Assembly (NCBI GenBank): GCA_002490665.1
Contig: DKUL01000059.1
Span: 53,704-117,703, forward strand
Length of the DNA stretch: 64,000 bases
From: Lachnospiraceae bacterium UBA7205
GTDB lineage: Bacteria > Bacillota > Clostridia > Lachnospirales > Lachnospiraceae
Reading direction: 5' to 3'
Below, one piece after another: positions 4,781-62,187 of this stretch (positions within the stretch are counted from its first letter, which is position 1; each line of letters starts with the position of its first letter). The notes under the pieces are model-generated. The model made no database searches, was not told where the DNA came from, and saw only the letters and a list, made by a program, of their open reading frames with translations. A program made the translations under genes and the position numbers.

Positions 4781-5686
4781 ATGAATAAAAAGAACCATTT
4801 AAGCGTAAAAACAGGTTTTCTATTTGCGCTCCCCGCAGTCGTCTATATGCTGGTCTTTGTCGGTTATCCGATGATTCAAAACTTTATATTGAGTGTTAAA
4901 AACGTGGATGTATATACATTTGCAGATGCATCCAAACAGGAATTTGTCGGTCTCAAAAATTATTTGGAACTGTTCGATGGAGAGGATTCCATTCTGCTGA
5001 CAGCAATCTCCAACACATTAATCTTTACGGTGATGTCAATCTTCTTTCAGTTTTTTATCGGTTTCGGGCTGGCGCTTCTTTTCAACAAGAAGTTCAAGGG
5101 CAGTTCCTTTTTCAGGGGTGTTACCATGATATCATGGCTGCTCCCTGTGACGGTTGCCGGTCTGCTGTTTAAGTTTATGTTTGCAAGCAAGGGCGGCATT
5201 ATCAACCAGCTCTTCATGTCCCTGCATTTGATTGATGCACCGCTGGAATGGCTGCTGGAGCCAAAACTTGCAATGATAGCGATTGTGGTGGCAAATATAT
5301 GGATTGGAATTCCCTTTAATATGATGCTGCTGATTACAGGTCTCACTACCATACCAGAGGAAATCTATGAAAGTTCCAAGCTGGACGGCGCAAGTAAATT
5401 GCAGACGCTGTTCCTGATTACGATTCCTATGATTAAACCGGCAATCATGTCGGTGCTGACACTGGGATTCGTCTACACGTTCAAGGTGTTTGATCTGGTG
5501 TGGGTTATGACAAAGGGCGGACCAATCAATGCGACAGAGCTGGTGTCCACCTACGCATATAAGCTGTCCTTTGACCAGTTCCAGTTCAGCAAGGGTTCAG
5601 CGGCGGCAAACATATTGTTCCTGATTCTGTTTGTGGTAGGTATCTTTTACATTAAACTGATCAATGACGAGGAAGAGGTGATGTGA
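4781..5686 (+). CDS. Carbohydrate ABC transporter permease
   Basis: Six TM helices; EAA loop (IPEEIYESSKLDGAS). Confidence 0.92.
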   Translation: MNKKNHLSVKTGFLFALPAVVYMLVFVGYPMIQNFILSVKNVDVYTFADASKQEFVGLKNYLELFDGEDSILLTAISNTLIFTVMSIFFQFFIGFGLALLFNKKFKGSSFFRGVTMISWLLPVTVAGLLFKFMFASKGGIINQLFMSLHLIDAPLEWLLEPKLAMIAIVVANIWIGIPFNMMLLITGLTTIPEEIYESSKLDGASKLQTLFLITIPMIKPAIMSVLTLGFVYTFKVFDLVWVMTKGGPINATELVSTYAYKLSFDQFQFSKGSAAANILFLILFVVGIFYIKLINDEEEVM

Positions 5687-5687
5687 T

Positions 5688-6518
5688 ATGAAGAATGAAA
5701 AAGGCAATTGGAAATATTTTATCATTGGCGCGATTGTATTTGTAATCTTTATTTTCCCACTATACTGGATGGTTGTCACGGCGCTCAAGACGCAGGTTGA
5801 GATATTCCAGATTCCGACACCGCTGTGGCCGAAAGACCTGACCTTTGAAGCCTTTGCAGACCAGATGTCCTCTTCCAGCGATACCTTTCAGGGATTTAAG
5901 AATAGTCTGATTATCGGATGCGGTGCTACGATTATTTCTACGATACTGTCCATTCCGGCAGCATATGGACTGGCAAGATTTAAGTTCAAGGGAAGGAAGC
6001 TGTTGATTCTATTTTTCTTAATGACGCAAATGCTTCCGTCCACTCTGATTCTTACTTCGCTGTACATCATGTTTTCGCGCATGGGGCTTTTGAATTCCTA
6101 TCTGGCACCGATCCTTGCGGATGCGACACTCGGAATACCGTTTAGTATTATTATACTGAGGACATATTTCCTGTCCATTCCGAAGGAGCTGGACGAAGCA
6201 GCGAAGATCGACGGCTGTAACAGCATCACTTCGTTTACCAAAATCATGCTCCCAATTGCAAAACCGGGTGTTGTTGTGGCAGCGGTGTTTTCTTTTGTGT
6301 ATGCATGGGGAGATTTGATTTACGGAATTACCTTTATTACAGATCCAACGAAACGCCCGATTACATCCAGCATTTATAATTACGTGCAGCAGTACCAGAC
6401 GTTGTGGAACGCAACGATGGCATTTGGTATCATTGCCATCATGCCGGTCGTATTAATCTTTATATTTATGCAGAAATATATCGTCAGCGGTTTGACAAAC
6501 GGCGCTGTCAAAGCATAG
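5688..6518 (+). CDS. Carbohydrate ABC transporter permease
   Basis: EAA loop IPKELDEAAKIDGC; TM pattern. Confidence 0.92.
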   Translation: MKNEKGNWKYFIIGAIVFVIFIFPLYWMVVTALKTQVEIFQIPTPLWPKDLTFEAFADQMSSSSDTFQGFKNSLIIGCGATIISTILSIPAAYGLARFKFKGRKLLILFFLMTQMLPSTLILTSLYIMFSRMGLLNSYLAPILADATLGIPFSIIILRTYFLSIPKELDEAAKIDGCNSITSFTKIMLPIAKPGVVVAAVFSFVYAWGDLIYGITFITDPTKRPITSSIYNYVQQYQTLWNATMAFGIIAIMPVVLIFIFMQKYIVSGLTNGAVKA

Positions 6519-17733: not shown

Positions 17734-19362
17734 ATGGGGCGATGGAATAAAAAGCAGTATTGGATGATGGCAGTATGCCTTCTTGCGGCCGTGTCTGCAA
17801 CGGCATGTGCGAATGATGGGACGGTGAATGTAAATGCTGCCAGTGAGAATAATGAAAGTGACACAAATGTCATTTCGGACGTGGTGGCGGATGAGTCCGG
17901 ACTTTTCTCGAAGCGTGACCTGGGCGGGGAATATGATGCATCAAAATGTGAACATATCACGCTTTCTGATGCAGGCTGCACGACGGATTCCAAGAATGTG
18001 GTGATAGAGGAGAGCAGGGTCACGATAACAGGGGAAGGGGACTATCTGGTAAGTGGTTCGCTCAGTGACGGAATGATTACCGTGGATGTCGACAAGACCG
18101 AAAAGGTTCAACTGGTGCTGGACGGTGTGGACATCAGCTGTGCGACGTCGGCTGCCATCTATGTAAAAAGCGCAGACAAGGTGTTTGTCACGCTTCCCGA
18201 CGCAACAGAAAACACACTCACAAACGGCGGTTCCTTTGTGGCAGTGGACGATAATAACATTGACGCGGTAATCTTTTCAAAGGATGATTTGACACTCAAT
18301 GGAACAGGAAAGCTTACAGTCGATTCCCCTGCCGGGCATGGAATCGTGTCAAAAAATGACCTTGTCATCGCGGATGGGACATATGATATTACTGCTGCAT
18401 GTCATGGGATGACTGGAAAGGACAGCGTGGCTGTCGCGGACGGTGATTTTCACATTCAGGCGGGAGAGGATGCCATAAAATCGGACAATAATGATGATGA
18501 CACAATGGGCAGTGTGCATATTCTGGGCGGAACTTATACGCTCGCAGGCGAGAGCGATGGGATCAATGCCCTAAATGAAATCAACATTTCCGGTGGTAAA
18601 ATCGTCGTGGAGCAGTCCGGTGAGGGGATTGAGGCGCGGATTATCAATATCTCCGGTGGGGAAATTGACATCATGTCGTCTGATGACGGATTAAATGCCA
18701 CGGACAAACGCCAGTCCGCAAAGGAGGAGACAGCCGATGTCCAGGCGGCGGACAAAAAAGGCGGTCGTGGCGGAATGAGTGACAATGACCCGGAAGCATC
18801 CATCAATATTTCGGGAGGCGTTCTGCGCGTGGATGCCGAGGGCGACGGTCTTGACTCGAACGGTTATATCCTGGTAAGCGGCGGGGAAGTTTATGTGACG
18901 GGACCTTCTCATGGCGGTGATGCCGCGCTTGACTATGGGATTGATGCCACGATAACGGGCGGAATCGTGGTGGCGGCAGGACAGGGCAGTATGGCGCAGA
19001 ATTTCGGCGCGGATTCGACACAGGGCAGTATTCTGGTAAGCACGCAGCAGCAGAATGTGGCAGGAAGCGACATTACTCTTTTGGACGCGGATGGCGGTGA
19101 AATTCTTGCATGGACAATGAAAAAAAGTTATAATTCAGTTACAATCAGCTGCCCGGAAATTAAGTCCGACGGTTCGTACACTGTGAAAATGGGTGAAAAC
19201 GCAGTGGATGTGGCTATGGACGGACTCATATACGGACAAGGATTTTCCTTTGGCGGAGGAAAACGCGGATTTGGCAGCGGGAAGAGACAGGGAGAACGCC
19301 CGGAAGGAATGCCGGAACCGCCCGATATGCCGAACGGAGAGAAGATGAACCGGACAGAATAA
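17734..19362 (+). CDS. DUF4353 / Cthe_2159-like carbohydrate-binding beta-helix lipoprotein
   Basis: Lipobox ATAC; ITGEGDYLVSGSLSDG, LVLDGVDI, repeated GDG(I/L)D/N beta-helix turns; G/P/E-rich tail. Confidence 0.8.
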   Translation: MGRWNKKQYWMMAVCLLAAVSATACANDGTVNVNAASENNESDTNVISDVVADESGLFSKRDLGGEYDASKCEHITLSDAGCTTDSKNVVIEESRVTITGEGDYLVSGSLSDGMITVDVDKTEKVQLVLDGVDISCATSAAIYVKSADKVFVTLPDATENTLTNGGSFVAVDDNNIDAVIFSKDDLTLNGTGKLTVDSPAGHGIVSKNDLVIADGTYDITAACHGMTGKDSVAVADGDFHIQAGEDAIKSDNNDDDTMGSVHILGGTYTLAGESDGINALNEINISGGKIVVEQSGEGIEARIINISGGEIDIMSSDDGLNATDKRQSAKEETADVQAADKKGGRGGMSDNDPEASINISGGVLRVDAEGDGLDSNGYILVSGGEVYVTGPSHGGDAALDYGIDATITGGIVVAAGQGSMAQNFGADSTQGSILVSTQQQNVAGSDITLLDADGGEILAWTMKKSYNSVTISCPEIKSDGSYTVKMGENAVDVAMDGLIYGQGFSFGGGKRGFGSGKRQGERPEGMPEPPDMPNGEKMNRTE

Positions 19363-41651: not shown

Positions 41652-41764
41652 AAAACAGGTGGGCACGTATAGTGTATTATTTAGGAACTGTTCAGAAATT
41701 ACGTATGACAATTACCTGTCACAAGTAATTTTTGAACAGTTCCTTAGGATGGCGGAGGATTGGA

Positions 41765-43159
41765 ATGAAATACGAAAAGGATGACAGTGTTACGCTGGTT
41801 ATCGAGGATATGGGGTCAGACGGCGAGGGCATTGGGAAAATAGACGGTTTTGCCTTTTTTGTGAAGGATGCGCTAATCGGTGACAAGGTGGAAGCAAAAG
41901 TCATGAAAGTCAAAAAGGGATATGCGTATGCCCGGCTGATGCGTATCGTGTCCCCCTCCCCGAACCGCACAGAGCCAGAATGCCCATACCATAAACAGTG
42001 CGGCGGATGCCAGATTCAGGCGCTCGATTACAGCGCGCAGCTTTTATATAAGGAAAAGAAGGTCAGAAACAATCTGATGCGAATCGGCGGATTTTCAGAA
42101 AAACTGCTTGACAGTGTAATGGAGCCGATTGTTGGGATGGAGCATCCGTACCACTACAGGAATAAGGCGCAGTTTCCGATTGGAACCGACAAAAACGGTG
42201 AAATTGTGACAGGATTTTATGCGGGAAGAACCCATACCATCATACCGAATACGGACTGTGTGCTTGGCATTTCCGAGAACCGGGATATTTTGGAGATTTT
42301 TATCAATTACATGAAACGTTGTAACGTGAAACCATATGACGAAACCACTGGGACAGGACTGGTCAGGCATGTCCTGATTCGAAAAGGATTTACAACAGGT
42401 GAAATCATGGTATGCGCTGTCATCAACGGCGAACACCTTCCGCAGGAAGACAGGCTTGTCGAAGCACTCAGGAAAATTGAGGGAATGGCGAGCATATCCA
42501 TCAACATCAATACAGAAAAAACAAATGTAATTATGGGAGGCAGATGCCGCACCATCTGGGGAAGCGATACAATCAGTGACGTGATTCATATGAGGGATGG
42601 GGAAGGAATTACATTTGCCATCTCGCCACTGTCCTTTTATCAGGTGAACCCTATCCAGACAGAAAGGCTCTACGGCATTGCCCTGGATTACGCGGGGCTG
42701 ACCGGGACGGAGACTGTCTGGGATTTATACTGCGGCATCGGCACCATCAGCCTGTTTATGGCGAAAAGGGCAAAACAGGTATACGGTGTTGAAATCGTGG
42801 AACAGGCAATTCTCGACGCGCGCAGGAACGCAGTGCGAAACGGCATCGACAATGCCAGCTTTTATGTGGGAAAGGCAGAGGAGGTTCTGCCAGGGCTATA
42901 TGAAAAGGAAGGCATTTATGCTGATGTAATCTGTGTCGACCCGCCACGCAAGGGGTGCGACAGTGCCTGTCTGGAAACGATATGCAAAATGATGCCTGAC
43001 CGCATTGTTTATGTAAGCTGTGACAGCGCCACCCTCGCAAGGGATCTGAAGTATCTGTGTGCAAATGGTTATGAACTGCGGTGCGCGCGGGCAGTGGATT
43101 TGTTTGGGCATACGGTGCATGTTGAAGTCGCATGTTGTCTACAAAGGAAGGATTCGTAG
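41765..43159 (+). CDS. rlmD: 23S rRNA (uracil-5-)-methyltransferase RlmD/RumA
   Basis: TRAM domain, CxxxxxCGGC cluster, YRNK, SFYQVN, DLYCGIG, DPPRKG, YVSCD. Confidence 0.95.
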   Translation: MKYEKDDSVTLVIEDMGSDGEGIGKIDGFAFFVKDALIGDKVEAKVMKVKKGYAYARLMRIVSPSPNRTEPECPYHKQCGGCQIQALDYSAQLLYKEKKVRNNLMRIGGFSEKLLDSVMEPIVGMEHPYHYRNKAQFPIGTDKNGEIVTGFYAGRTHTIIPNTDCVLGISENRDILEIFINYMKRCNVKPYDETTGTGLVRHVLIRKGFTTGEIMVCAVINGEHLPQEDRLVEALRKIEGMASISININTEKTNVIMGGRCRTIWGSDTISDVIHMRDGEGITFAISPLSFYQVNPIQTERLYGIALDYAGLTGTETVWDLYCGIGTISLFMAKRAKQVYGVEIVEQAILDARRNAVRNGIDNASFYVGKAEEVLPGLYEKEGIYADVICVDPPRKGCDSACLETICKMMPDRIVYVSCDSATLARDLKYLCANGYELRCARAVDLFGHTVHVEVACCLQRKDS

Positions 43160-43447
43160 AAATCCTTGAATTTGCGCACTTAACGAGGATTTCAAAGTTT
43201 AACCGAACACCTGAATATCGGAAGGATAGTTTGGTATTCAACTATTTGTTAAGAAGAAAGATATGGAATATGAAGGTGTAATTAAGCATTGGAAAAGTCA
43301 TAACATTTTTGGTTAGCGAGGTGCGTCAAAGGGTTATTGAAAATTGGCAGCTATGCAACGAACCAGTGACAATTTTGTATCTTGAAAGCGGTAGCTTGTG
43401 CGGAATATGTTTGATATAATTATACCTGATGATTGGAGGTATTTTTT

Positions 43448-44125
43448 ATGGAATTACAGGACAAATTACAGCTTTTGAGAAAACAGAAAGGTTATTCACA
43501 GGAACAGCTTGCGGATAAATTGGGAATTGCTCGCCAGACGCTTAGTAAATGGGAAAATGGTCAGGCTGTGCCTGAATTGAATAATTTGATTTCGCTGAGT
43601 AATCTGTATGGAATAACCATAGACCGAATAGTGAAAGAAGACGATGAATGCAATCTTTCTTTGTGTAGGAATGCCAGTATAGATATCAATGGAATTATTG
43701 ATTTTCTTCTTATGGCAAAAAAGAATACCTATGCAGCGGCAAATAATAAAGCTGAATCATGTAGAATGAATTCTCAGGATTATCGTTATGAAGACAAAAA
43801 TGGATTTACCTATCTTGACTCCTACTTGGGCGGGGAATGTTTTGTCGGTGAGGAAGCGGTATGGCTGCATGAAAAGCCGGTTTGGAGTATGAACTATGCA
43901 GGACGTGTGACAGGAGAAAATTTTAGTGGCGATTTCTTGAAAGAGGTGCTTATGGAAGTTCCGGAAAATTTGCCATTTCGTGGCCCGGAGATTTATACAA
44001 AAGGGGATTACCATTATCACTGCAAAGCAGATGGCGGGTTTGTATGGTTTCAGGGATATGAAGAAATATTTTACATGAATGAAAAAATATATGATTGCTA
44101 TTTTCATGGAGGAACTATTCGGTAA
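43448..44125 (+). CDS. XRE HTH fused to a DUF5680-like domain
   Basis: N-terminal HTH (SQEQLADKLGIARQTLSKWENG); C-terminal AKKNTYA...YLDSYLGG...GEEAVW...WSMNYAGR. Confidence 0.75.
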   Translation: MELQDKLQLLRKQKGYSQEQLADKLGIARQTLSKWENGQAVPELNNLISLSNLYGITIDRIVKEDDECNLSLCRNASIDINGIIDFLLMAKKNTYAAANNKAESCRMNSQDYRYEDKNGFTYLDSYLGGECFVGEEAVWLHEKPVWSMNYAGRVTGENFSGDFLKEVLMEVPENLPFRGPEIYTKGDYHYHCKADGGFVWFQGYEEIFYMNEKIYDCYFHGGTIR

Positions 44126-44961
44126 TGAATATAATTGAAAAGGAAATCGAGGTAAAGGATTATCTGACAAAATCCAGTCTCCCTGCCAGTGATTATGTTA
44201 TTAATCCGTATGTGGGCTGCCCCCATGGATGTAAATACTGTTATGCCAGCTTTATGAAAAGATTTACAGGGCACAAGGAAGAATGGGGTACATTTATAGA
44301 TGTGAAAAGATGTTCGAAACCGATAAGCAAAAAGAAATTAAAGGGGAGGACGGTTTTTCTTGCATCTGTTACAGACTGTTATAATCCCTGTGAGGAAAAA
44401 TATTGTATAACGCAAAGTATATTAAGGCAGCTTACGGATGTGGACTGTACAGTTAGTATTTCAACAAAATCATCACTGGTTTTGAGGGATGTGGAATTGC
44501 TAAAGCAATTTAAGGATATATCGGTAGCGGTGTCTGTTAATACGCTGGATGAAAGTTTTAAGGATGATATGGATAAAGCAAGCAGTATTAAGGTCCGCAT
44601 GAAGACGCTTAAAGTATTGCATGAAAACGGAATTCATACGGTGCTATTCATGTCGCCAATATTTCCGGCAATAACAGATTATAAGAAAATTATCAAAAAA
44701 AGCAGGCTGTTTGTTGATGAGTACTGGTTTGAAAATCTGAATCTTAGAGGGGGATATAAGGCTTGGATACTTGGGTATATAGATGAAAAATATCCCCAAT
44801 ATACTGACTTGTATAAACAAATATATGTGGAAGGAAATAAAGGCTATTGGAATAAACTGGCAGAAGAGATAGAGGCGTATTGTGCCAGTCATTCTGTTCC
44901 GCACACAAATTACTTTTACCATGAGCAGCTTGTGGCGCAGAAGAAGGAAAAAATATTATAA
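44125..44961 (+). CDS. Radical SAM protein, SplB/COG1533-like
   Basis: INPYVGCPHGCKYCYA (CxxxCxxC), VTDCYNP, STKS; ATG overlaps the upstream TAA. Confidence 0.85.
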   Translation: MNIIEKEIEVKDYLTKSSLPASDYVINPYVGCPHGCKYCYASFMKRFTGHKEEWGTFIDVKRCSKPISKKKLKGRTVFLASVTDCYNPCEEKYCITQSILRQLTDVDCTVSISTKSSLVLRDVELLKQFKDISVAVSVNTLDESFKDDMDKASSIKVRMKTLKVLHENGIHTVLFMSPIFPAITDYKKIIKKSRLFVDEYWFENLNLRGGYKAWILGYIDEKYPQYTDLYKQIYVEGNKGYWNKLAEEIEAYCASHSVPHTNYFYHEQLVAQKKEKIL

Positions 44962-45204
44962 AATCATGGGAAAGATTCCGCTTCGGAGTTGGCGAAGTGC
45001 TCGCATTTATTGGGAATTTAAGGGATGCAATTCCATGGATATACACAAGGCTGGAAGCATTGCTTTCAAGGATGTCGGAAATATACAAGATGTTTTTATA
45101 AAAATTTTGTATAATTCTGGTATTCGGACAGACAGGAAAGGATGAAAAATTTAACGAAACTGTAGCGATGAGAGTACAGGTATTAAAAAGGAACGGAGGT
45201 ATTT

Positions 45205-45528
45205 ATGGCAAAGAACAAAGAACTTGCAGATTATGTAATGAACCAATTGTCTGATTTGGGAGATATACGAAATATTCCCATGATGGGCGGCTACGTTTTT
45301 TACTATAAAGAGCGGATATTTGGCGGGATTTATGGCAATGGTTTTATGGTAAAGATTACAGAGGCAAGCAAGAAGTTTATGCCGGATAGCGAACCTGAAC
45401 CACCATATGAGGGTGCAAAACCTATGTTAGCGGTAACCATTTTGGATGACAGGACTGCGTTGCAGAATATGGTGGAAGAAATGTATCCGGAGTTGCCGGA
45501 AAGGGAACCCAAAAAGAAAAAAGTGTAA
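45205..45528 (+). CDS. TfoX/Sxy N-terminal-domain protein
   Basis: IPMMGGYVFYYKERIFGGIYGNGFMVK...PYEGAKP. Confidence 0.75.
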   Translation: MAKNKELADYVMNQLSDLGDIRNIPMMGGYVFYYKERIFGGIYGNGFMVKITEASKKFMPDSEPEPPYEGAKPMLAVTILDDRTALQNMVEEMYPELPEREPKKKKV

Positions 45529-45583
45529 ATCGTGGAACAATTCTACTGCCCCCGGCTGTTTCACCCGGTTACTGTAACCACTT

Positions 45584-46906
45584 TCAATCAGGGGGATACA
45601 TATTCCGTTTGCTCATGGCACACACAATGCCAAAATAGCAAGTATAAAAAACTACAATACATGCCCCGAACGCACCGGTTAACTTGAGCAGAATATTCTT
45701 CAAAGAAGCTGGCAATATTAAGTTCATTTTTCCGTTCAGTAACGGTATGCAGAATAAAATAATCAATAATGCCATTATCATTGGAGTGGTCAGCTTGATT
45801 GCTATCTGCCGATTCACAAGTCTTGCTGTCTGCTTATTGCTTTTTCCCAGACAGCGCATTATCTGATTGCTTTTTGAATTTTGCCGAATCTCTATAATCT
45901 GCTGCAAGGATAATATTGAAAAATAAATAACCAGAAACACGATGCAGATACTTATCTGTGAAGTTCCCATCCACTGCTGCATAGCCGCATCAAAAAGCTG
46001 AAATTCCGGATGCAGCATCAATAGTCCGGTCACGAAAGAACATCCGGAAAATAAAAAGCATATGCAGAAAATGGCATTAACGGTAGCAGCCGTTTGTATA
46101 TTGGATGTTACATTTGCCACAATATATAGCCTGTCTTTTTGATAGATTTGAACGGATTTCATTTGCCTGTACGCATATAAATAACCAAACACCCATTTGT
46201 AAAAAGCAAAGACAGATATAAGCAGGGGTATTGCCGCAACAGATATGGGATAAACAACATAAACCGCTGGCAAAAAAACAATGCCACAAACGCAGCCTAT
46301 TAGGCAGATAAAACACAATAAGAAGACAATGCCCCATTTTTTATAGCTTTCTATTTCTTTTACGCCTTGGCTGCGGTTTCCTTCATACATCAGTTCCCTT
46401 ATTTGCAGCCTGTCTATGCGCTGCTTCAACCGAAAAGAACACACTGTTTCAATAAGGCAAAAAAACAGGAACGTATAGAGCATACTTTTTCCATAAAGGA
46501 ATCCGTAATGGTTCATTTCATGCAGCGGTTCATGGAAGTACCAAAAGCCATATATGGAAAAACCTATTGTTGCGCCTGCCATGTAACAGCAAAAGCCGAT
46601 CAGCAAAACTTCGCACAGGAACAGCCGGGTTAATCTCTTTTTTTCCATACCCAGTAATAAATAGCTTGCAAACTCTTTTGCCCGCTGCCTCAGCAGAAAT
46701 AAGTCGATATATCCGGCTAAAACTATTTGGATGGCTGCTATCAGCAATGGCAGGGAAATTACCTGAAAACCGGCTGATTTTCCTGTGATGGTTATACAGT
46801 TAGATACCTCCATAACCGCCAAAAGGACGGTCATGGTAACAACATATAAAAGGTAATTTATAAAAGAACGCCTGGCATTACGGATTGACAGCTTCAAGTA
46901 CATCAT
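45584..46906 (-). CDS. FtsX/BceB-like ABC permease lacking the large extracellular domain
   Basis: RQRAKEFASYLLLGM and IMRCLGKS FtsX-like loops; about 10 TMs; ATG overlaps the ATPase TGA. Confidence 0.7.
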   Translation of the reverse strand: MMYLKLSIRNARRSFINYLLYVVTMTVLLAVMEVSNCITITGKSAGFQVISLPLLIAAIQIVLAGYIDLFLLRQRAKEFASYLLLGMEKKRLTRLFLCEVLLIGFCCYMAGATIGFSIYGFWYFHEPLHEMNHYGFLYGKSMLYTFLFFCLIETVCSFRLKQRIDRLQIRELMYEGNRSQGVKEIESYKKWGIVFLLCFICLIGCVCGIVFLPAVYVVYPISVAAIPLLISVFAFYKWVFGYLYAYRQMKSVQIYQKDRLYIVANVTSNIQTAATVNAIFCICFLFSGCSFVTGLLMLHPEFQLFDAAMQQWMGTSQISICIVFLVIYFSILSLQQIIEIRQNSKSNQIMRCLGKSNKQTARLVNRQIAIKLTTPMIMALLIILFCIPLLNGKMNLILPASLKNILLKLTGAFGACIVVFYTCYFGIVCAMSKRNMYPPD

Positions 46907-48000
46907 GGCATTTTTCTCCTCTCTATCCATTCTATTTTCTTCAAAATATCCGCGAAAAAGTTCTGTTTGTTTTCATGTTCCCGGTTTAAGGAAGCTTTTA
47001 TTTCGCCGTCTTCCATAAATAAAATCCTGTCACAATAGCTTGCCGCCATGACGTCATGTGTGACCATCAGTATTGTTGCGCTGTACTCTCTGCAAAGCAT
47101 GGAAAGGGTGTCTAAAAGCTGTCTGGCAGCATGGGAATCCAATGCCCCGGTAGGCTCATCCGCAAGTATGATATCCGGATTTAACACAATGGCACGGGCG
47201 CAGGCGCAGCGCTGCCGTTGTCCTCCCGATACCTCATATGGAAATTTATCTAATATTGCCGATATATTCAGCTTTTCAGATAAACCTTGAATCATTGGAC
47301 GAATATTTTCTTTTGCAACCTCTTTAATTGTCAGGGCAAGCGCAATGTTTTCATAGATAGTCAGGGTTTCAAGTAAGTTGTATTCCTGGAAAACAAAACC
47401 TAAATGGCTGCGGCGAAATTCTGCGGCAGCTGCATCTGGCATATCCGCGATGTCCTGCCCGCTAATTCGTATCGTCCCATTCGTTGGCTTGTCTATTGTG
47501 GCGATTAAATTAAGCAGTGTTGTTTTCCCGGAACCGGAAGCACCCATGATTCCAACAAAGCTGCCGTGCGGTATCTGAAAACTTACGTCATTTACAGCTA
47601 ATACAGAATTATTTTCTGTTTCGTGCCCTGACGAAATGGTTTCATAGAGCTTGGAAACATTTACGACCTCCAAAACATTTTGGGGTGCTGTATCACTTTC
47701 CTTAAATTCCCATTTATCATGTCCTAACCAATTCGTAATCACGTCCATAAGTACCTCGTCTGCTTTCTCTTTCAGCTTATCTTCCGCAATGCGCTCACCC
47801 GCAAATAGTTCATTTAAAGTAACGTCTAAAAGAGTGCATAAAGGCAAAAACAAAGATAAATCCGGCATGGACCGTCCGGTTTCCCATTTTGAAATAGCCT
47901 TATCGGTTATTTCCAGTTTTTCTGCTAACTGGCTTTGCGTCCAGCCTTTTGCTTTCCGGCGCTCGGAAATAAAAGCGCCAATCTTAACTTGATTCATCAT
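46903..48000 (-). CDS. XRE HTH - ABC ATPase (BceA/LolD-like) fusion
   Basis: N-terminal XRE (TQSQLAEKLEITDKAISKWETG) in frame with GASGSGKT, FVFQEYNL, VSGGQRQR, LADEPTG, MVTHD. Confidence 0.85.
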   Translation of the reverse strand: MMNQVKIGAFISERRKAKGWTQSQLAEKLEITDKAISKWETGRSMPDLSLFLPLCTLLDVTLNELFAGERIAEDKLKEKADEVLMDVITNWLGHDKWEFKESDTAPQNVLEVVNVSKLYETISSGHETENNSVLAVNDVSFQIPHGSFVGIMGASGSGKTTLLNLIATIDKPTNGTIRISGQDIADMPDAAAAEFRRSHLGFVFQEYNLLETLTIYENIALALTIKEVAKENIRPMIQGLSEKLNISAILDKFPYEVSGGQRQRCACARAIVLNPDIILADEPTGALDSHAARQLLDTLSMLCREYSATILMVTHDVMAASYCDRILFMEDGEIKASLNREHENKQNFFADILKKIEWIERRKMP

Positions 48001-48051
48001 TCAGCCCTCCTGCTTGTGGTAATTATATAAATCCGGCATAAAAATGAACAC

Positions 48052-48104
48052 CTACCAGCGGTAGAGTTGGATAAAAGGGGGGTTTTTAACGCTACCAGTC
48101 GTAT
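48052..48104. promoter_or_regulatory. Putative XRE operator pair
   Basis: CTACC-N3-GGTAG perfect IR at 48052-48064 and a degenerate copy at 48092-48104, just upstream of the XRE-ATPase promoter. Confidence 0.45.
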
Positions 48105-48264
48105 AGTTCTGTACGGAATTTGATGAAATATAAGGAAATATGTATATTTCGATTATATCATTGCGCTATCCCGAAATCTATCTTGTTTTGTCAGGGCAGT
48201 CTGACCGGCTTTTTTTAAAAACAATTCTAAAGACGTTTTTGTAGAAAAAGCTTTCATTATCTGG

Positions 48265-48286
48265 AATATTATGGTACTATAATATT
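48265..48286. promoter_or_regulatory. 22-bp palindrome overlapping the -10 of the hydrolase-KAS III-MCP operon
   Basis: AATATTATGGTACTATAATATT, one mismatched pair, contains TATAAT. Confidence 0.5.
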
Positions 48287-48340
48287 AGCTATAATGCGCT
48301 TAAAAAAAGAAAAACATATGATGCGAAGGGGGAACGCAAG

Positions 48341-49120
48341 ATGAATTCAAAAAAAATACTGCCATATGAGAGGATAGGAAATTGTGCAAGCAGCACGACG
48401 TTGATTTTCCTGCACGGTTCTACCATGTCCATGGGTGGGATGCATCCGTTTGCAAGTGCATTCGACGCGTACAACTGCATTGTTTTTGACCTGACGGGTC
48501 ATGGGAAGTCGGATGAGAAAGAACCGGAAGCAGTAAGCGGTTTTGCGGAGGATGTGGAATATTCGGTTAACCAGCTCAGGGAACAAAATATTGTCACGGA
48601 GAAAGTCATCCTGCTGGGCTATTCAATGGGCGGTGCAATTACCTGTGAGACTGCCATCCGTGGGAAATTAAAGCTTGACGGCATCGTACTGCTAAGCAGT
48701 GGCGCCGATTTGAAGCATTATACGCCTTTGGTCGACAATCTTAAGACAATGCCGATGGAAGCGTTTCGGACAGAGGATATTCTGGACGCCCTATTCGGCC
48801 CGGATGCCGCAGACGAGGACAAGGCAAGCATTAAAGGGCTGTTTCTTTCCACAAAGTCAGCAGACACGACAGGCTATATGGATTTGATGGTTTCCAATGC
48901 ATACGACAACCTTGAAGCAAGCAGGGGAATCAAAATTCCGGCGCTTATGGTGCACGGCAGCAGTGACGTCATTGTCGAGCCGATGGCGGCAGTCGAGACA
49001 TGGCGGGCAATAGAAGGCAGCCAGCTTCTCATGGTTCCATACAAAGGGCACAGCGCCATTTTTGAGGATACCGAAATGATAAGGGATAAGATTGTTTCAT
49101 TTATAAATATGTGTTCTTAA
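48341..49120 (+). CDS. Alpha/beta-fold hydrolase
   Basis: IFLHG, FDLTGHG, nucleophile elbow GYSMGG, HGSSD (Asp), KGHS (His): intact triad. Confidence 0.9.
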   Translation: MNSKKILPYERIGNCASSTTLIFLHGSTMSMGGMHPFASAFDAYNCIVFDLTGHGKSDEKEPEAVSGFAEDVEYSVNQLREQNIVTEKVILLGYSMGGAITCETAIRGKLKLDGIVLLSSGADLKHYTPLVDNLKTMPMEAFRTEDILDALFGPDAADEDKASIKGLFLSTKSADTTGYMDLMVSNAYDNLEASRGIKIPALMVHGSSDVIVEPMAAVETWRAIEGSQLLMVPYKGHSAIFEDTEMIRDKIVSFINMCS

Positions 49121-49166
49121 ACAAGGCGCCTGTTAGTATCGATAGTTGAAAGGCGGAATGATAAAT

Positions 49167-50168
49167 ATGGAAAACAATGCTGTCATTAAAGGAGTTTCAT
49201 ATTACCATCCGGACAATGTGGTGGATAATGAGTTTTTTATAGAACATTTTAAGAAACAGGGGAAAGACATAGAAGGGCTGCTGCGTGCGACGGGAAGGAA
49301 AAGCAGATATATTTCAAATGACGATGAAGAAAACATGCTGACAATGGGGTATCAGGCAAGCCTTAAGGTACTGGAGCAGACGCACGTAAAGGTTTCGCAG
49401 ATTAATATGATTGTATTTTCTTCCGGAACGCCCGAGTACATAGCGCCGACAAACGCGCTGAAGCTGCATTCCATGCTGAGCGCGGGGCAGAAGTGCGCAG
49501 TCTATGACCTGAATGCCAACTGCGCAGGCATGGTGGTTGCACTTGACCAGATTGCGAGGCTGATGCGGAGCAATCCGGATGTAAAGTATGCCCTTCTGGT
49601 CGGCTCTGACCAGCTGAACCGGTATGTGCGGTACAATGAAGTCGTCCCGTACTCAAATTTTGCAGATTCGGCATGTGCCATGGTAATCGAAAATGTTTTT
49701 TCGACGACCAGGGGATTTGTTGATTCCGACTTTTATACCAATTCAAGCCATCATGATAAAATCCTTATGCCGGCAAAAGGGATGTCCACCGTGACAAGGG
49801 AAAAGAATCTGCCGACGAAGGACAAGCTGGTCAAGTGGGTTCCGTTTGACTTCGGGGGTGCGTTCCACAGTGCAAAGATATCCGTGGAGGAGCTGCTGTT
49901 CAAGAACAGCCTGCACAAGGATGATATCAAGAGGTATTATTTTTCACAGCTTGCCTGGAAAAATATTGTCCATGCCTGTGAGGACATGGAGGAAGACATA
50001 GCAAAGTTCAAGTTTGTCGGTGACGAATTCGGATACACGGGGACGACAAGCCCGATGCTTGCCTACGCAAGGTCACTGGAGGAGAACGAACTGCAAATCG
50101 GGGACTATGTCATTTTTTGGACGGTTGGCGCAGGGACGACATGTGCGACAGTTTTATATCAATATTAA
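49167..50168 (+). CDS. Atypical KAS III (FabH-like) thiolase-fold enzyme
   Basis: YDLNANCAG (catalytic Cys), GSD, FWTVGAG; FSQL replaces HQAN and GYTG replaces GNTS. Confidence 0.85.
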   Translation: MENNAVIKGVSYYHPDNVVDNEFFIEHFKKQGKDIEGLLRATGRKSRYISNDDEENMLTMGYQASLKVLEQTHVKVSQINMIVFSSGTPEYIAPTNALKLHSMLSAGQKCAVYDLNANCAGMVVALDQIARLMRSNPDVKYALLVGSDQLNRYVRYNEVVPYSNFADSACAMVIENVFSTTRGFVDSDFYTNSSHHDKILMPAKGMSTVTREKNLPTKDKLVKWVPFDFGGAFHSAKISVEELLFKNSLHKDDIKRYYFSQLAWKNIVHACEDMEEDIAKFKFVGDEFGYTGTTSPMLAYARSLEENELQIGDYVIFWTVGAGTTCATVLYQY

Positions 50169-50180
50169 GGAGAATAGAAT

Positions 50181-51668
50181 ATGCAGACACAATCAGCAAA
50201 CAGTGAGGAAAGACTCATCAATAATATTATGTTTATTTACATTTTTGGCGTTGCAGTTTCAGGCTTCAGTTTTGTCATGATTTTTTTGCACGGCGGAATA
50301 CGGGAATGTATCTTCCTTCTGTCCGGCTTATGTGCCATCCTGACCAAATTACTTGAAAAGCCGCTGGGAAAGAATGCAAAATATGTATATGCCTGCATTC
50401 CACCGATTATCGGGGCTATTACTGCCGCAGTCTGTAATACGGACACCAGTGACAGTTATGTCTGCCTGACCCATTACTATTTTGTAGCAACATTGCTGCT
50501 GGTGCCGTATTATTCGCAAAAGCTAATCCGTGTGAGCGTTACAGTGACCGTGCTGGTCAATGCGGGGATGATGATTCTGTTTCCGGCAGGATTTTTAAAG
50601 CTCCACAGTGTTATCGGCTGGATATTTACGGGAATTGTGTACATCGTGCTCTTTGCCGCGTGCAGTTTTATCATATACCGCACAATCGCCCTTTTTAAGA
50701 TTGTGGAAGAGCAGGGACAGGATGCGGAGAATGTGCTGCACAACGTGCAGGCTGCGTTTGACAGTCTGGAGGAGTCCTCTGAAGCAATATATACTTCCCT
50801 GCAGGAATTTGAGGGCAATACAGAGGAAATTGCAGCTTCCACGCAGCAGATTAGTGAGAGCGCTGATTCCCAGATTAGCGAGGTTGAAAACAGCCTGACA
50901 ATTTTTAGCGAGTTAAATGATAAGATTGTAAAATCCGAAGAACGTGTGAACCAGACGGTTGAGACGATTAAAAATCTGAAAAACAAAAATGATGAGGGAT
51001 TTTCCGTGATAGACGCACTCTCAGAGCAGTTTGAGGAGAACATCAGGACAACACAGACTGCGGCGGATGGCGTTGAGGAGCTGTCCCGCAAATCAAGTGC
51101 GATTGGCGGCATTATAGAGAGCATCCGGCAAATTGCAAGGCAGACCAACCTTCTTGCGCTCAATGCATCCATCGAGGCTGCGAGGGCAGGGGAGGCAGGA
51201 AAGGGATTTGCGGTCGTCGCGGACGAAATTAATTCCCTTTCGAATGAATCTTCAAATGCAACCGGAAAAATAGATGCCATTTTGAAAGATATTATCGAGA
51301 CGGTAGAATCGACGCACAAGGTCATGAACCACAATAACGATGTGGTAAATGATTCCAGCGGAAGACTGGACGATACCGTGAAAATCTTTAAGGTCATGCT
51401 GGAATCCTCGGAGGAGGTTATTGATATCACACAGCTGCTGAAATCAGAGCTTGAGGATATCGTTGCCATAAAGGAGCAGCTTCTGGGCGTGATGAAGCGC
51501 GTTGAGGACGGTTCCAAAAACTTTGTGCTTACGACAGAAGGCATTAGTGCATCGACGGAAGAACAGGTTGCCGGTCTGGACAATATTGTGAAGTCAATGA
51601 AGAATATGCAGGCGGGGATGGAACGTCTTTCCAGTGTGCTGCACAGTGAAAAGGAGAATGGGAAATAA
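50181..51668 (+). CDS. Methyl-accepting chemotaxis protein with an approximately 6-TM membrane-embedded sensor domain
   Basis: About six hydrophobic segments in the first 190 aa, then [27 protein letters not shown]. Confidence 0.9.
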
Positions 51669-62171: not shown

Positions 62172-62187
62172 CTTACATTTTTGTAAC
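62172..62187. promoter_or_regulatory. BceR-like binding box
   Basis: CTTACA-TTTT-TGTAAC matches TNACA-N4-TGTAA; lies upstream of a TTTCCA-N17-TATAAT promoter. Confidence 0.6.

Follow-up and report, generated by a model that had tools for sequence, protein, structure and literature searches.

The locus described here raises the question of whether an ATP-binding cassette (ABC) transporter of the BceAB lineage can control its own transcription without the two-component system (TCS) that belongs to a Bce module. It lies in a stretch of 64,000 nucleotides from Lachnospiraceae bacterium UBA7205 (assembly GCA_002490665.1, contig DKUL01000059.1, positions 53,704 to 117,703 of the forward strand), hereafter called the window, and comprises two overlapping genes, one coding for an XRE-type helix-turn-helix (HTH) domain fused to a BceA-type ATPase and the other for a BceB-fold permease with a very short extracellular loop. 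The answer which we favour, with somewhat more confidence than doubt, is that the pair is a BceAB-lineage transporter regulating itself through the fused HTH at a palindrome of its own, the cycle of the ATPase being the presumed switch. The features on which the argument is built are the following, with positions counted from the first letter of the window.

45580 to 48188, minus strand: conserved two-gene cassette, both genes plus about 190 nt upstream (blastn)
46903 to 48000, minus strand: HTH-BceA fusion gene, 365 aa plus stop (open reading frame listing, Pfam)
47791 to 48000, minus strand: XRE/Cro-C1 HTH domain, residues 1-70, five helices (Pfam HTH_3, AlphaFold2, hereafter AF2)
47722 to 47790, minus strand: conserved linker helix, residues 71-93 (AF2 helix 73-91; W91 and G93 invariant)
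47683 to 47721, minus strand: start of a variable flexible spacer, residues 94-106 (indels, low conservation, pLDDT below 50)
46906 to 47682, minus strand: BceA-type nucleotide-binding domain (NBD), residues 107-365 (alignment with Protein Data Bank (PDB) chains, motifs)
45584 to 46906, minus strand: BceB-fold permease, 440 aa, 10 transmembrane (TM) helices (Pfam FtsX, hydropathy, paralogue alignment, AF2)
45947 to 46012, minus strand: short TM7-TM8 extracellular loop, about residues 299-320, in place of an ectodomain of 200-250 aa

The fused ATPase, its permease and their conservation

The first-pass annotation of this DNA, made from the sequence alone, had described a 365-aa reading frame joining an XRE HTH to an intact BceA-type ATPase, and this was borne out by Pfam, by PDB matches and by invariant motifs. 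HTH_3 is matched at residues 11-65 (E 5e-14) and ABC_tran at residues 136-284 (E 3e-34), with HTH_31 and HTH_19 also matched in the N-terminal domain. The HTH had been given a length of about 95 aa; the domain is indeed present, but the HTH proper takes up only about 70 aa, with helices at residues 4-17, 22-29, 33-40, 48-58 and 62-67 in the AF2 model (pLDDT 65-93), and is followed by the conserved helix of residues 71-93 and then by the spacer, whose variability and length differences run on to about residue 135, within the first strands of the NBD. When compared with the sequences of all solved structures, the fusion protein has its top matches in BceA of Bacillus subtilis (240 bits) and PsdA (235 bits), the next one reaching about 180 bits; the BceA chains 7tcg_B and 8s5g_B are among the top PDB sequence matches, and the BceA alignment spans residues 125-354. 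The set of NBD motifs is intact, namely GASGSGKT (Walker A) at residue 153, FQ (Q-loop) at 204, SGGQ (signature) at 258, ILADE (Walker B) at 278 and THD (H-loop) at 314. The best partial matches in NCBIfam are L_ocin_972_ABC, DarD, LolD, FtsE and MacB, and the protein shares 52% identity with the unfused BceA paralogues encoded in its own genome. A hydrophobic or TM segment was sought in the fusion protein and none was found, the maximum Kyte-Doolittle average over 19 residues being 1.49, within the HTH; judging by the sequence, any attachment of the fusion to the membrane would be via the permease.

The stop codon TGA of the fusion gene overlaps the start codon ATG of the permease gene (ATGA), and the coupling to a 440-aa BceB-like permease proposed earlier is confirmed by this overlap together with the fold matches. 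Pfam FtsX matches the permease in two stretches, hydropathy gives ten segments, and the five best PDB fold matches of the AF2 model (pLDDT 77) are all BceB chains, with 7tch_A as the best (TM-score 0.71 on the query, E 3e-7) and YbbP coming next (E 6e-2). The permease can be aligned over its whole length with both canonical BceB paralogues of its own genome (699 and 743 aa), and the sole gap in this alignment, about 250 residues long, corresponds to the TM7-TM8 ectodomain, of which about 20 residues remain, just as the first reading of a reduced extracellular loop had it. The short loop carries an invariant W312-x-G314-x-x-Q317 motif, is non-helical at residues 299-306 in the model, and is kept in the nine other aligned orthologues. 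With an FtsX-domain permease and an ATPase of the MacB/LolD/BceA clade, the pair is by its predicted domains a type VII (MacB/FtsX-type, mechanotransmission) ABC pairing.

A search for the permease in 151 genera of the family returned full-coverage frames of about 440-460 aa in all three genomes with the fusion and in none of the other 148, the remaining homologues being BceB-type frames of 600-755 aa which align over TM1-7 only, at 23-30% identity; a few of the frames were shortened by stop codons or contig ends. Fusion and loss of the ectodomain go together. In one genome (G015), which carries a 93%-identical fusion, there are also fragments of a second short permease (C9:917-1357 and C15:515-691, 53-55% identity), one of them with an in-frame TAA, which suggests a decayed second cassette.

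The search for full-length homologues with conserved synteny that had been recommended with the first reading yielded, from 5.8 billion proteins, at least 120 protein clusters with 84-96% identity, all of them with the HTH and ABC Pfam domains, and the fusion is not unique to one genome, a finding that would have refuted the first reading. Several of these clusters are named from uncultured Acetatifactor or Lachnospiraceae, and the database name of the proteins is only “ATP-binding cassette domain-containing protein”. In whole-genome searches full-length fusions were found in seven of the 66 species of the genus, one of which carries two copies, and in three of the 151 genera of the family; a phylum sample of 401 genomes added one more fusion genome, from the same family, and a library of representatives at 50% identity holds a handful of clusters of the BceA-type fusion family. 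The module is rare and patchy among species and abundant in metagenomes.

The gene pair is kept in eleven genomic loci, down to 63% identity, and in every locus examined the fusion gene runs into a second, overlapping gene, whose product is a short-loop permease of about 440 aa. An alignment of ten orthologues (63-92% identity) shows no variation in the ATPase motifs and none at most positions of the HTH. Pairwise ratios of nonsynonymous to synonymous substitution rates (dN/dS) are 0.02-0.06 for the HTH, 0.06-0.11 for the NBD and 0.26-0.70 for residues 94-135, which comprise the spacer and the first NBD strands; the values for the HTH are as low as those for the NBD or lower, so the HTH is under strong purifying selection. 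A chance deletion or an assembly artefact is ruled out, as the orthologues are many, their frames are intact and dN/dS is low. A blastn comparison of window positions 43000-51000 with ten orthologous loci shows that the DNA homology between loci (64-88% identity) begins at 45580 and ends at 48188 or earlier, with unrelated flanks, and because it is confined to this interval the cassette is self-contained. The pair is a small, horizontally mobile two-gene cassette of gut Lachnospiraceae. Carriage on plasmids was rejected on the best tblastn matches in PLSDB, which cover the NBD only; the 103 records with at least 80% coverage, which were not inspected, may represent joined neighbouring genes.

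No histidine kinase or response regulator is encoded among the window genes from 41732 to 51668, nor within 7 kb of the cassette in another locus, L040. The same genome has two canonical modules elsewhere, one on contig C71 with the order response regulator, histidine kinase, BceA, BceB, and one on C74 with the same set plus an intervening gene, and in both a TTACA-N4-TGTAA box precedes bceA (C71:105123 and C74:57321). With up to two mismatches allowed, no TNACA-N4-TGTAA box was found in the 200 nt that precede the fusion gene, as the first-pass annotation had noted for this promoter. A Bce-type box, TTACATTTTTGTAA, is present at window position 62173 (C82:115876), near the right end of the window, and past that end there is a gene for a BceA-like ATPase (C82:118133-118852) which is 44% identical to the NBD of the fusion; together they probably represent a third Bce-like module.

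A Bce module gives resistance to peptide antibiotics acting on the lipid II cycle and is defined by a 10-TM permease with an ectodomain of 200-250 residues and by a two-component system (PMC11009047). Like the BceRS-BceAB systems (BceAB, PsdAB and YxdLM of B. subtilis, NsrFP of Streptococcus agalactiae), the cassette has a BceA-type ATPase and a 10-TM BceB-fold permease, and in both cases expression appears to be dedicated to the transporter itself. Unlike them, it has no TM7-TM8 ectodomain, no adjacent intramembrane-sensing kinase or response regulator and no BceR box, its ATPase bears the HTH, and identity between its permease and canonical BceB does not exceed 30% over TM1-7. Since the ectodomain, the adjacent TCS and the Bce box are all missing, the cassette is not filed as a Bce module and is, as far as its sequence tells, a derived variant of the Bce lineage.

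The candidate operator and its relatives

The upstream region of the cassette contains the following elements.

48005 to 48010, minus strand: ribosome-binding site GGAGGG (read from the sequence; kept in orthologues)
48022 to 48027, minus strand: probable -10 element TATAAT, 24 nt downstream of the palindrome
48052 to 48064, no strand assigned: palindrome CTACC-N3-GGTAG, candidate operator of the fused HTH, centred near -43
48092 to 48098, minus strand: upstream half-site CTGGTAG, the second “operator” of the first-pass annotation, not conserved
48152 to 48160, minus strand: extended -10-like element TGATATAAT, within the upstream region of the cassette, possible second promoter

Regulators of the XRE/Cro-C1 family bind palindromic operators as dimers, mostly in their own promoters. 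In the window the palindrome is perfect (CTACC-GCT-GGTAG). The block CTCTACC-N3-GGTAGGTGT is kept in nine of the ten orthologous upstream regions, where the surrounding sequence diverges, and in the tenth (L012) an insertion of about 118 nt displaces it. The spacing of 24 nt between the palindrome and the -10 element is invariant in L001, L009-L011 and L013-L017, the hexamer being TATAAT, TATACT or TATGAT. The -35 position reads TGTTCA in the window, with three of six matches to the consensus, and TGTTAA or TGTCCC in other loci, and the promoter was not called by the consensus scan because this -35 is too weak. CTACC-N3-GGTAG occurs once in the 4.1-Mb genome, where about three copies are expected, and the weight of the palindrome lies in its conservation and position. 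A composite search of the genome for the core with a -10 element at the right spacing returned the site of the cassette and one match inside the coding region of a PP-loop ATPase; a wider regulon was rejected on account of the single copy of CTACC-N3-GGTAG and the intracoding location of the only other composite match.

The first reading had operators of the CTACC-N3-GGTAG type flanking the promoter and a repressor acting on them; the first of these details had to be given up and the second is not supported. There is one perfect palindrome and an unconserved half-site, which is found as (C/T/A)GGTAG or CAGTAG in L001, L009, L010 and L011 only (four of the ten loci) and is absent from L013-L017, and both lie upstream of the -10 element; as to the sign, with the site near -43 and a weak -35 next to it, an activator is at least as good a fit. 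The extended -10-like element TGATATAAT is kept in L001, L009, L011 and L013 and is absent from the more distant loci. Just beyond the cassette boundary, at 48190-48215 on the plus strand, there is a terminator-like hairpin, GTCAGGGCAGTCTGAC, followed by a T-run.

A terminator scan also flags the palindrome itself, as TCTACCGCTGGTAGG followed by a T-run, which would fit an RNA hairpin functioning as a terminator or attenuator. However, such a hairpin would have only six pairs, shows no compensatory changes and in L010 is not followed by a T-run, its arms are kept by sequence and not by pairing, and it is the spacing from the -10 element that has been preserved, so that an intrinsic terminator was rejected. 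The other way in which the pair might have a role outside transport is as a defence or toxin-antitoxin-like module, with the XRE domain as the antitoxin and an ATPase of the AbiEii, AriA or Mads type. PADLOC does match mad3 (E 1e-30), HTH_VI and RmrA, and the patchy distribution is as for mobile elements; yet these matches reflect generic ABC and HTH similarity, the permease has none, and the ATPase is clearly BceA-like with a partner of the BceB fold. A defence system was discarded on the ground that the PADLOC matches are only generic, and a non-transport role of either kind is considered highly improbable.

The closest relatives of the HTH and linker helix of the fusion (51-58% identity) are small proteins in which the HTH is followed by two to four TM helices, and the linker helix is homologous to the juxtamembrane helix of these membrane-anchored XRE proteins. 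One of them is encoded at C74:53625-54365 (minus strand) by the third, overlapping gene of a canonical BceRS-BceAB locus; it consists of an XRE HTH, about two TM helices and a C-terminal CxxC...CxxC, its HTH and helix are 51% identical to those of the fusion, and it has relatives in L021-L026. Similar HTH-TM proteins are spread across the phylum. Upstream of the HTH-TM genes in L024 and L026 there is CTCAACC-AAC-GGTA or CCACC-GCC-AGT, 26 nt from the -10 element, and the distance from GGT to TATAAT in the BceA-type cassette is also 26 nt.

These relatives bear on a further possibility, namely that the free, soluble HTH-ATPase binds DNA and docking to the permease removes it, in which case the promoter would report how much ATPase there is per permease, or whether the two are docked. 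This option, already raised in the first-pass annotation, would be in keeping with a fusion that has no membrane segment of its own and with the translational coupling of the two genes, which fixes their stoichiometry, and transporter-dependent sequestration has precedents in MalK-MalT and Mlc-PtsG. What speaks against it is that the closest relatives of the HTH and helix are permanently anchored in the membrane and have the same promoter layout, so this HTH clade evidently works from the membrane. NBDs of the BceA type, as a rule, also stay firmly attached to BceB (PMC9169098). We therefore regard sequestration as unlikely.

A second family of HTH_3-ABC_tran fusions (P0257/P0292, hereafter P0257), 295 aa in length and counting at least 30 clusters, was found among the representatives. 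Its loci are listed below.

L018, 889 to 1776: P0257-type locus, among further HTH_3 genes
L038, 5001 to 8018: P0257-type locus, among further HTH_3 genes
L039, 1681 to 4698: P0257-type locus, among further HTH_3 genes

The HTH of P0257 is about 53% identical to that of the BceA-type fusion, while its NBD is of the MacB/LolD type and about 31% identical, and the HTH is joined directly to the NBD with no linker helix or spacer. The MacB-type fusion arose separately, since it is 72% identical to unfused ATPases of 229 aa. Downstream, and overlapping the fusion gene, comes a gene for a 437-aa FtsX permease, which begins with one TM helix and then a non-hydrophobic stretch and is assigned to the MacB type by that start alone; after it there is a gene for a protein of 277 aa that has no Pfam match. 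Upstream there is AACC-TCA-GGT or AACC-TTA-GGT, 26 nt from an extended -10 element. P0257 thus shares with the cassette the HTH clade, the N-terminal fusion to a type VII ATPase, the overlapping FtsX gene and an ACC-N3-GGT core 26 nt from the -10 element, and differs from it in the NBD type, in the absence of linker and spacer and in the presence of the third gene. The ACC-N3-GGT motif travels with the HTH clade and fronts the gene encoding it, as expected of an autoregulatory operator, and on this sequence pattern the core is a candidate autoregulatory operator of the clade.

Proposed regulation by the transporter itself

In BceAB complexes there are two BceA subunits per BceB, and the NBDs undergo large ATP-dependent movements (PMC9169098). 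Transport activity is signalled to BceS inside the BceAB-S complex, which makes the regulation need-based or flux-sensing (PMC10314905; bioRxiv 10.1101/2020.02.28.969956). The ectodomain of NsrFP binds bacitracin (PMC12484072), and BcrR is a membrane-bound one-component regulator of the XRE type which controls a bacitracin transporter operon (PMC3968067; PMC10269533).

Self-regulation of the cassette through its fused HTH could proceed as follows. An XRE HTH, fused N-terminally to the ATPase with a helix and a flexible spacer in between, would have replaced the separate BceRS. Because BceAB complexes hold two ATPase subunits per permease, the assembled transporter would present two HTHs, and these two tethered domains would bind the 13-bp CTACC-N3-GGTAG palindrome as a dimer, about 43 bp upstream of their own start site; the bound pair would then activate transcription of both genes of the cassette. 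Activation is somewhat likelier than repression because the site near -43 adjoins a weak -35. Class II activators, for example lambda cI at PRM, sit at such a position. Substrate-stimulated closing and opening of the NBDs may alter the distance or orientation of the two HTHs, and promoter activity would in this way track the workload of the transporter, giving need-based logic without BceS and BceR. In the absence of an ectodomain, recognition of the substrate or signal probably takes place within the membrane, with a lipid-cycle intermediate or a membrane-active compound as candidates, and the only output would be more transporter.

A simpler explanation is plain autoregulation uncoupled from transport, in which constitutive binding of the HTH, most simply as an autorepressor, sets a steady level of expression and the fusion does nothing more than co-produce the regulator and the transporter. 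Simple autorepression is common among XRE proteins, a protein bound at the site, which touches the -35 region, could block RNA polymerase, and a long and variable spacer under relaxed selection argues against a rigid mechanical link. For such a purpose, however, a free-standing HTH gene would suffice, yet the fusion has survived protein divergence of at least 37%, and an HTH was fused independently to a MacB-type ATPase, where there is no spacer. The weak -35 and the identical distance of the site in all the loci and in the second family fit activation, and a transporter which had lost both the ectodomain and BceRS would, under plain autoregulation, have no inducibility. On balance this explanation seems rather unlikely, although it has more to be said for it than the other two.

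The core of the first-pass proposal, self-regulation of the transporter through its fused HTH without BceRS, is supported in comparative terms by the conserved fusion under selection, the cassette of its own, the absence of a consistent TCS and of a Bce box, the palindrome at fixed spacing and the return of its core in front of related HTH genes, whereas the repressor label and the flanking operators were not retained. Several points nonetheless weigh against self-regulation coupled to the transporter. The position near -43 and the start site both derive from a predicted -10 element; the palindrome alone is not statistically rare, given the roughly three copies expected per genome, and covariation-type evidence cannot tell a DNA operator apart from some other promoter element that is conserved. 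The site overlaps the -35, so a repressor role would be possible as well. The AF2 model of the whole fusion is monomeric and too poor (pLDDT 58) to place the HTHs on an NBD dimer. In one metagenomic locus (L041) there is a kinase downstream of the cassette, split into HisKA (172 aa) and HATPase_c (104 aa) parts at 5529-6358. Finally, no description of a studied BceB without the ectodomain was found in the literature, subscription journals being mostly outside the coverage. In L041 the split kinase is followed by an ABC-2 transporter pair, an arrangement absent from the other loci.

The cassette also resembles transmembrane transcription regulators, among them BcrR of Enterococcus faecalis, ToxR and CadC. 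In BcrR, as is proposed for the cassette, an N-terminal XRE-type HTH at the membrane controls an antibiotic ABC transporter operon without phosphotransfer, and the HTH and helix of the fusion are 51-58% identical to HTH-TM proteins of this general design. BcrR, however, senses by its own four TM helices and is separate from BcrAB, which is of an unrelated ABC type, whereas the HTH of the cassette lacks a TM segment and forms one polypeptide with the motor subunit of the transporter. By analogy, the cassette would work like a one-component system of the BcrR type without a TM segment of its own. With MalK-MalT and PtsG-Mlc it would share the direct reading of a protein's activity state at the promoter, except that there the regulator is a separate captured protein. 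In “trigger enzymes” such as PutA and BirA a DNA-binding domain is joined to a catalytic one, and these are not transporter subunits. No description of an HTH fused to the ATPase of an ABC exporter was found in the full-text literature, with subscription journals mostly outside the coverage, and a transporter self-wired through an HTH-ATPase appears to be undescribed.

A bolder form of the proposal is possible, and we put it forward only tentatively: opening and closing of the NBDs would directly gate the two fused HTHs, a single polypeptide would be motor, flux sensor and transcription factor at once and would hold its own promoter at the membrane, this wiring would have evolved at least twice in type VII ABC systems (with BceA-type and MacB-type ATPases), and in the Bce lineage it would have made the ectodomain and BceRS dispensable.

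Surroundings of the cassette and its significance

The neighbouring genes in the window code for a TfoX_N protein, a radical SAM protein, an HTH-DUF5680 protein, an RlmD-like methyltransferase, an alpha/beta hydrolase, KAS III and an MCP. The HTH-DUF5680 gene, at 43433-44125 on the plus strand and 1.5 kb from the cassette, codes for a 230-aa fusion of XRE HTH_3 with DUF5680 (E 2.5e-35). Another palindrome, TGACA-N4-TGTCA, often in the form AAATGACAC..GTGTCATTT, is present in the window at 17859, 20607 and 58472 and at 209 sites in the 4.1-Mb genome, where the same palindrome with N3 spacing has six sites and with N5 spacing 23; a global regulator may bind there, or the sequence may be a dispersed repeat.

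Firmicutes rely chiefly on transporters of the BceAB type for inducible defence against bacitracin, lantibiotics and related peptides, and the way in which BceAB signals its workload to BceS is an active structural question. If the proposal is true, a direct signal from the ATPase to the DNA would be the smallest known need-based circuit, consisting of two genes and one operator, and the cassette would be a simple system for studying how ABC conformational cycling is converted into transcriptional output. It would also reveal what a BceB permease does without its ectodomain and would provide a compact, portable and self-regulating efflux or sensor part. Since it is common in gut metagenomes, the cassette bears on the exchange of resistance-type functions among gut Lachnospiraceae.

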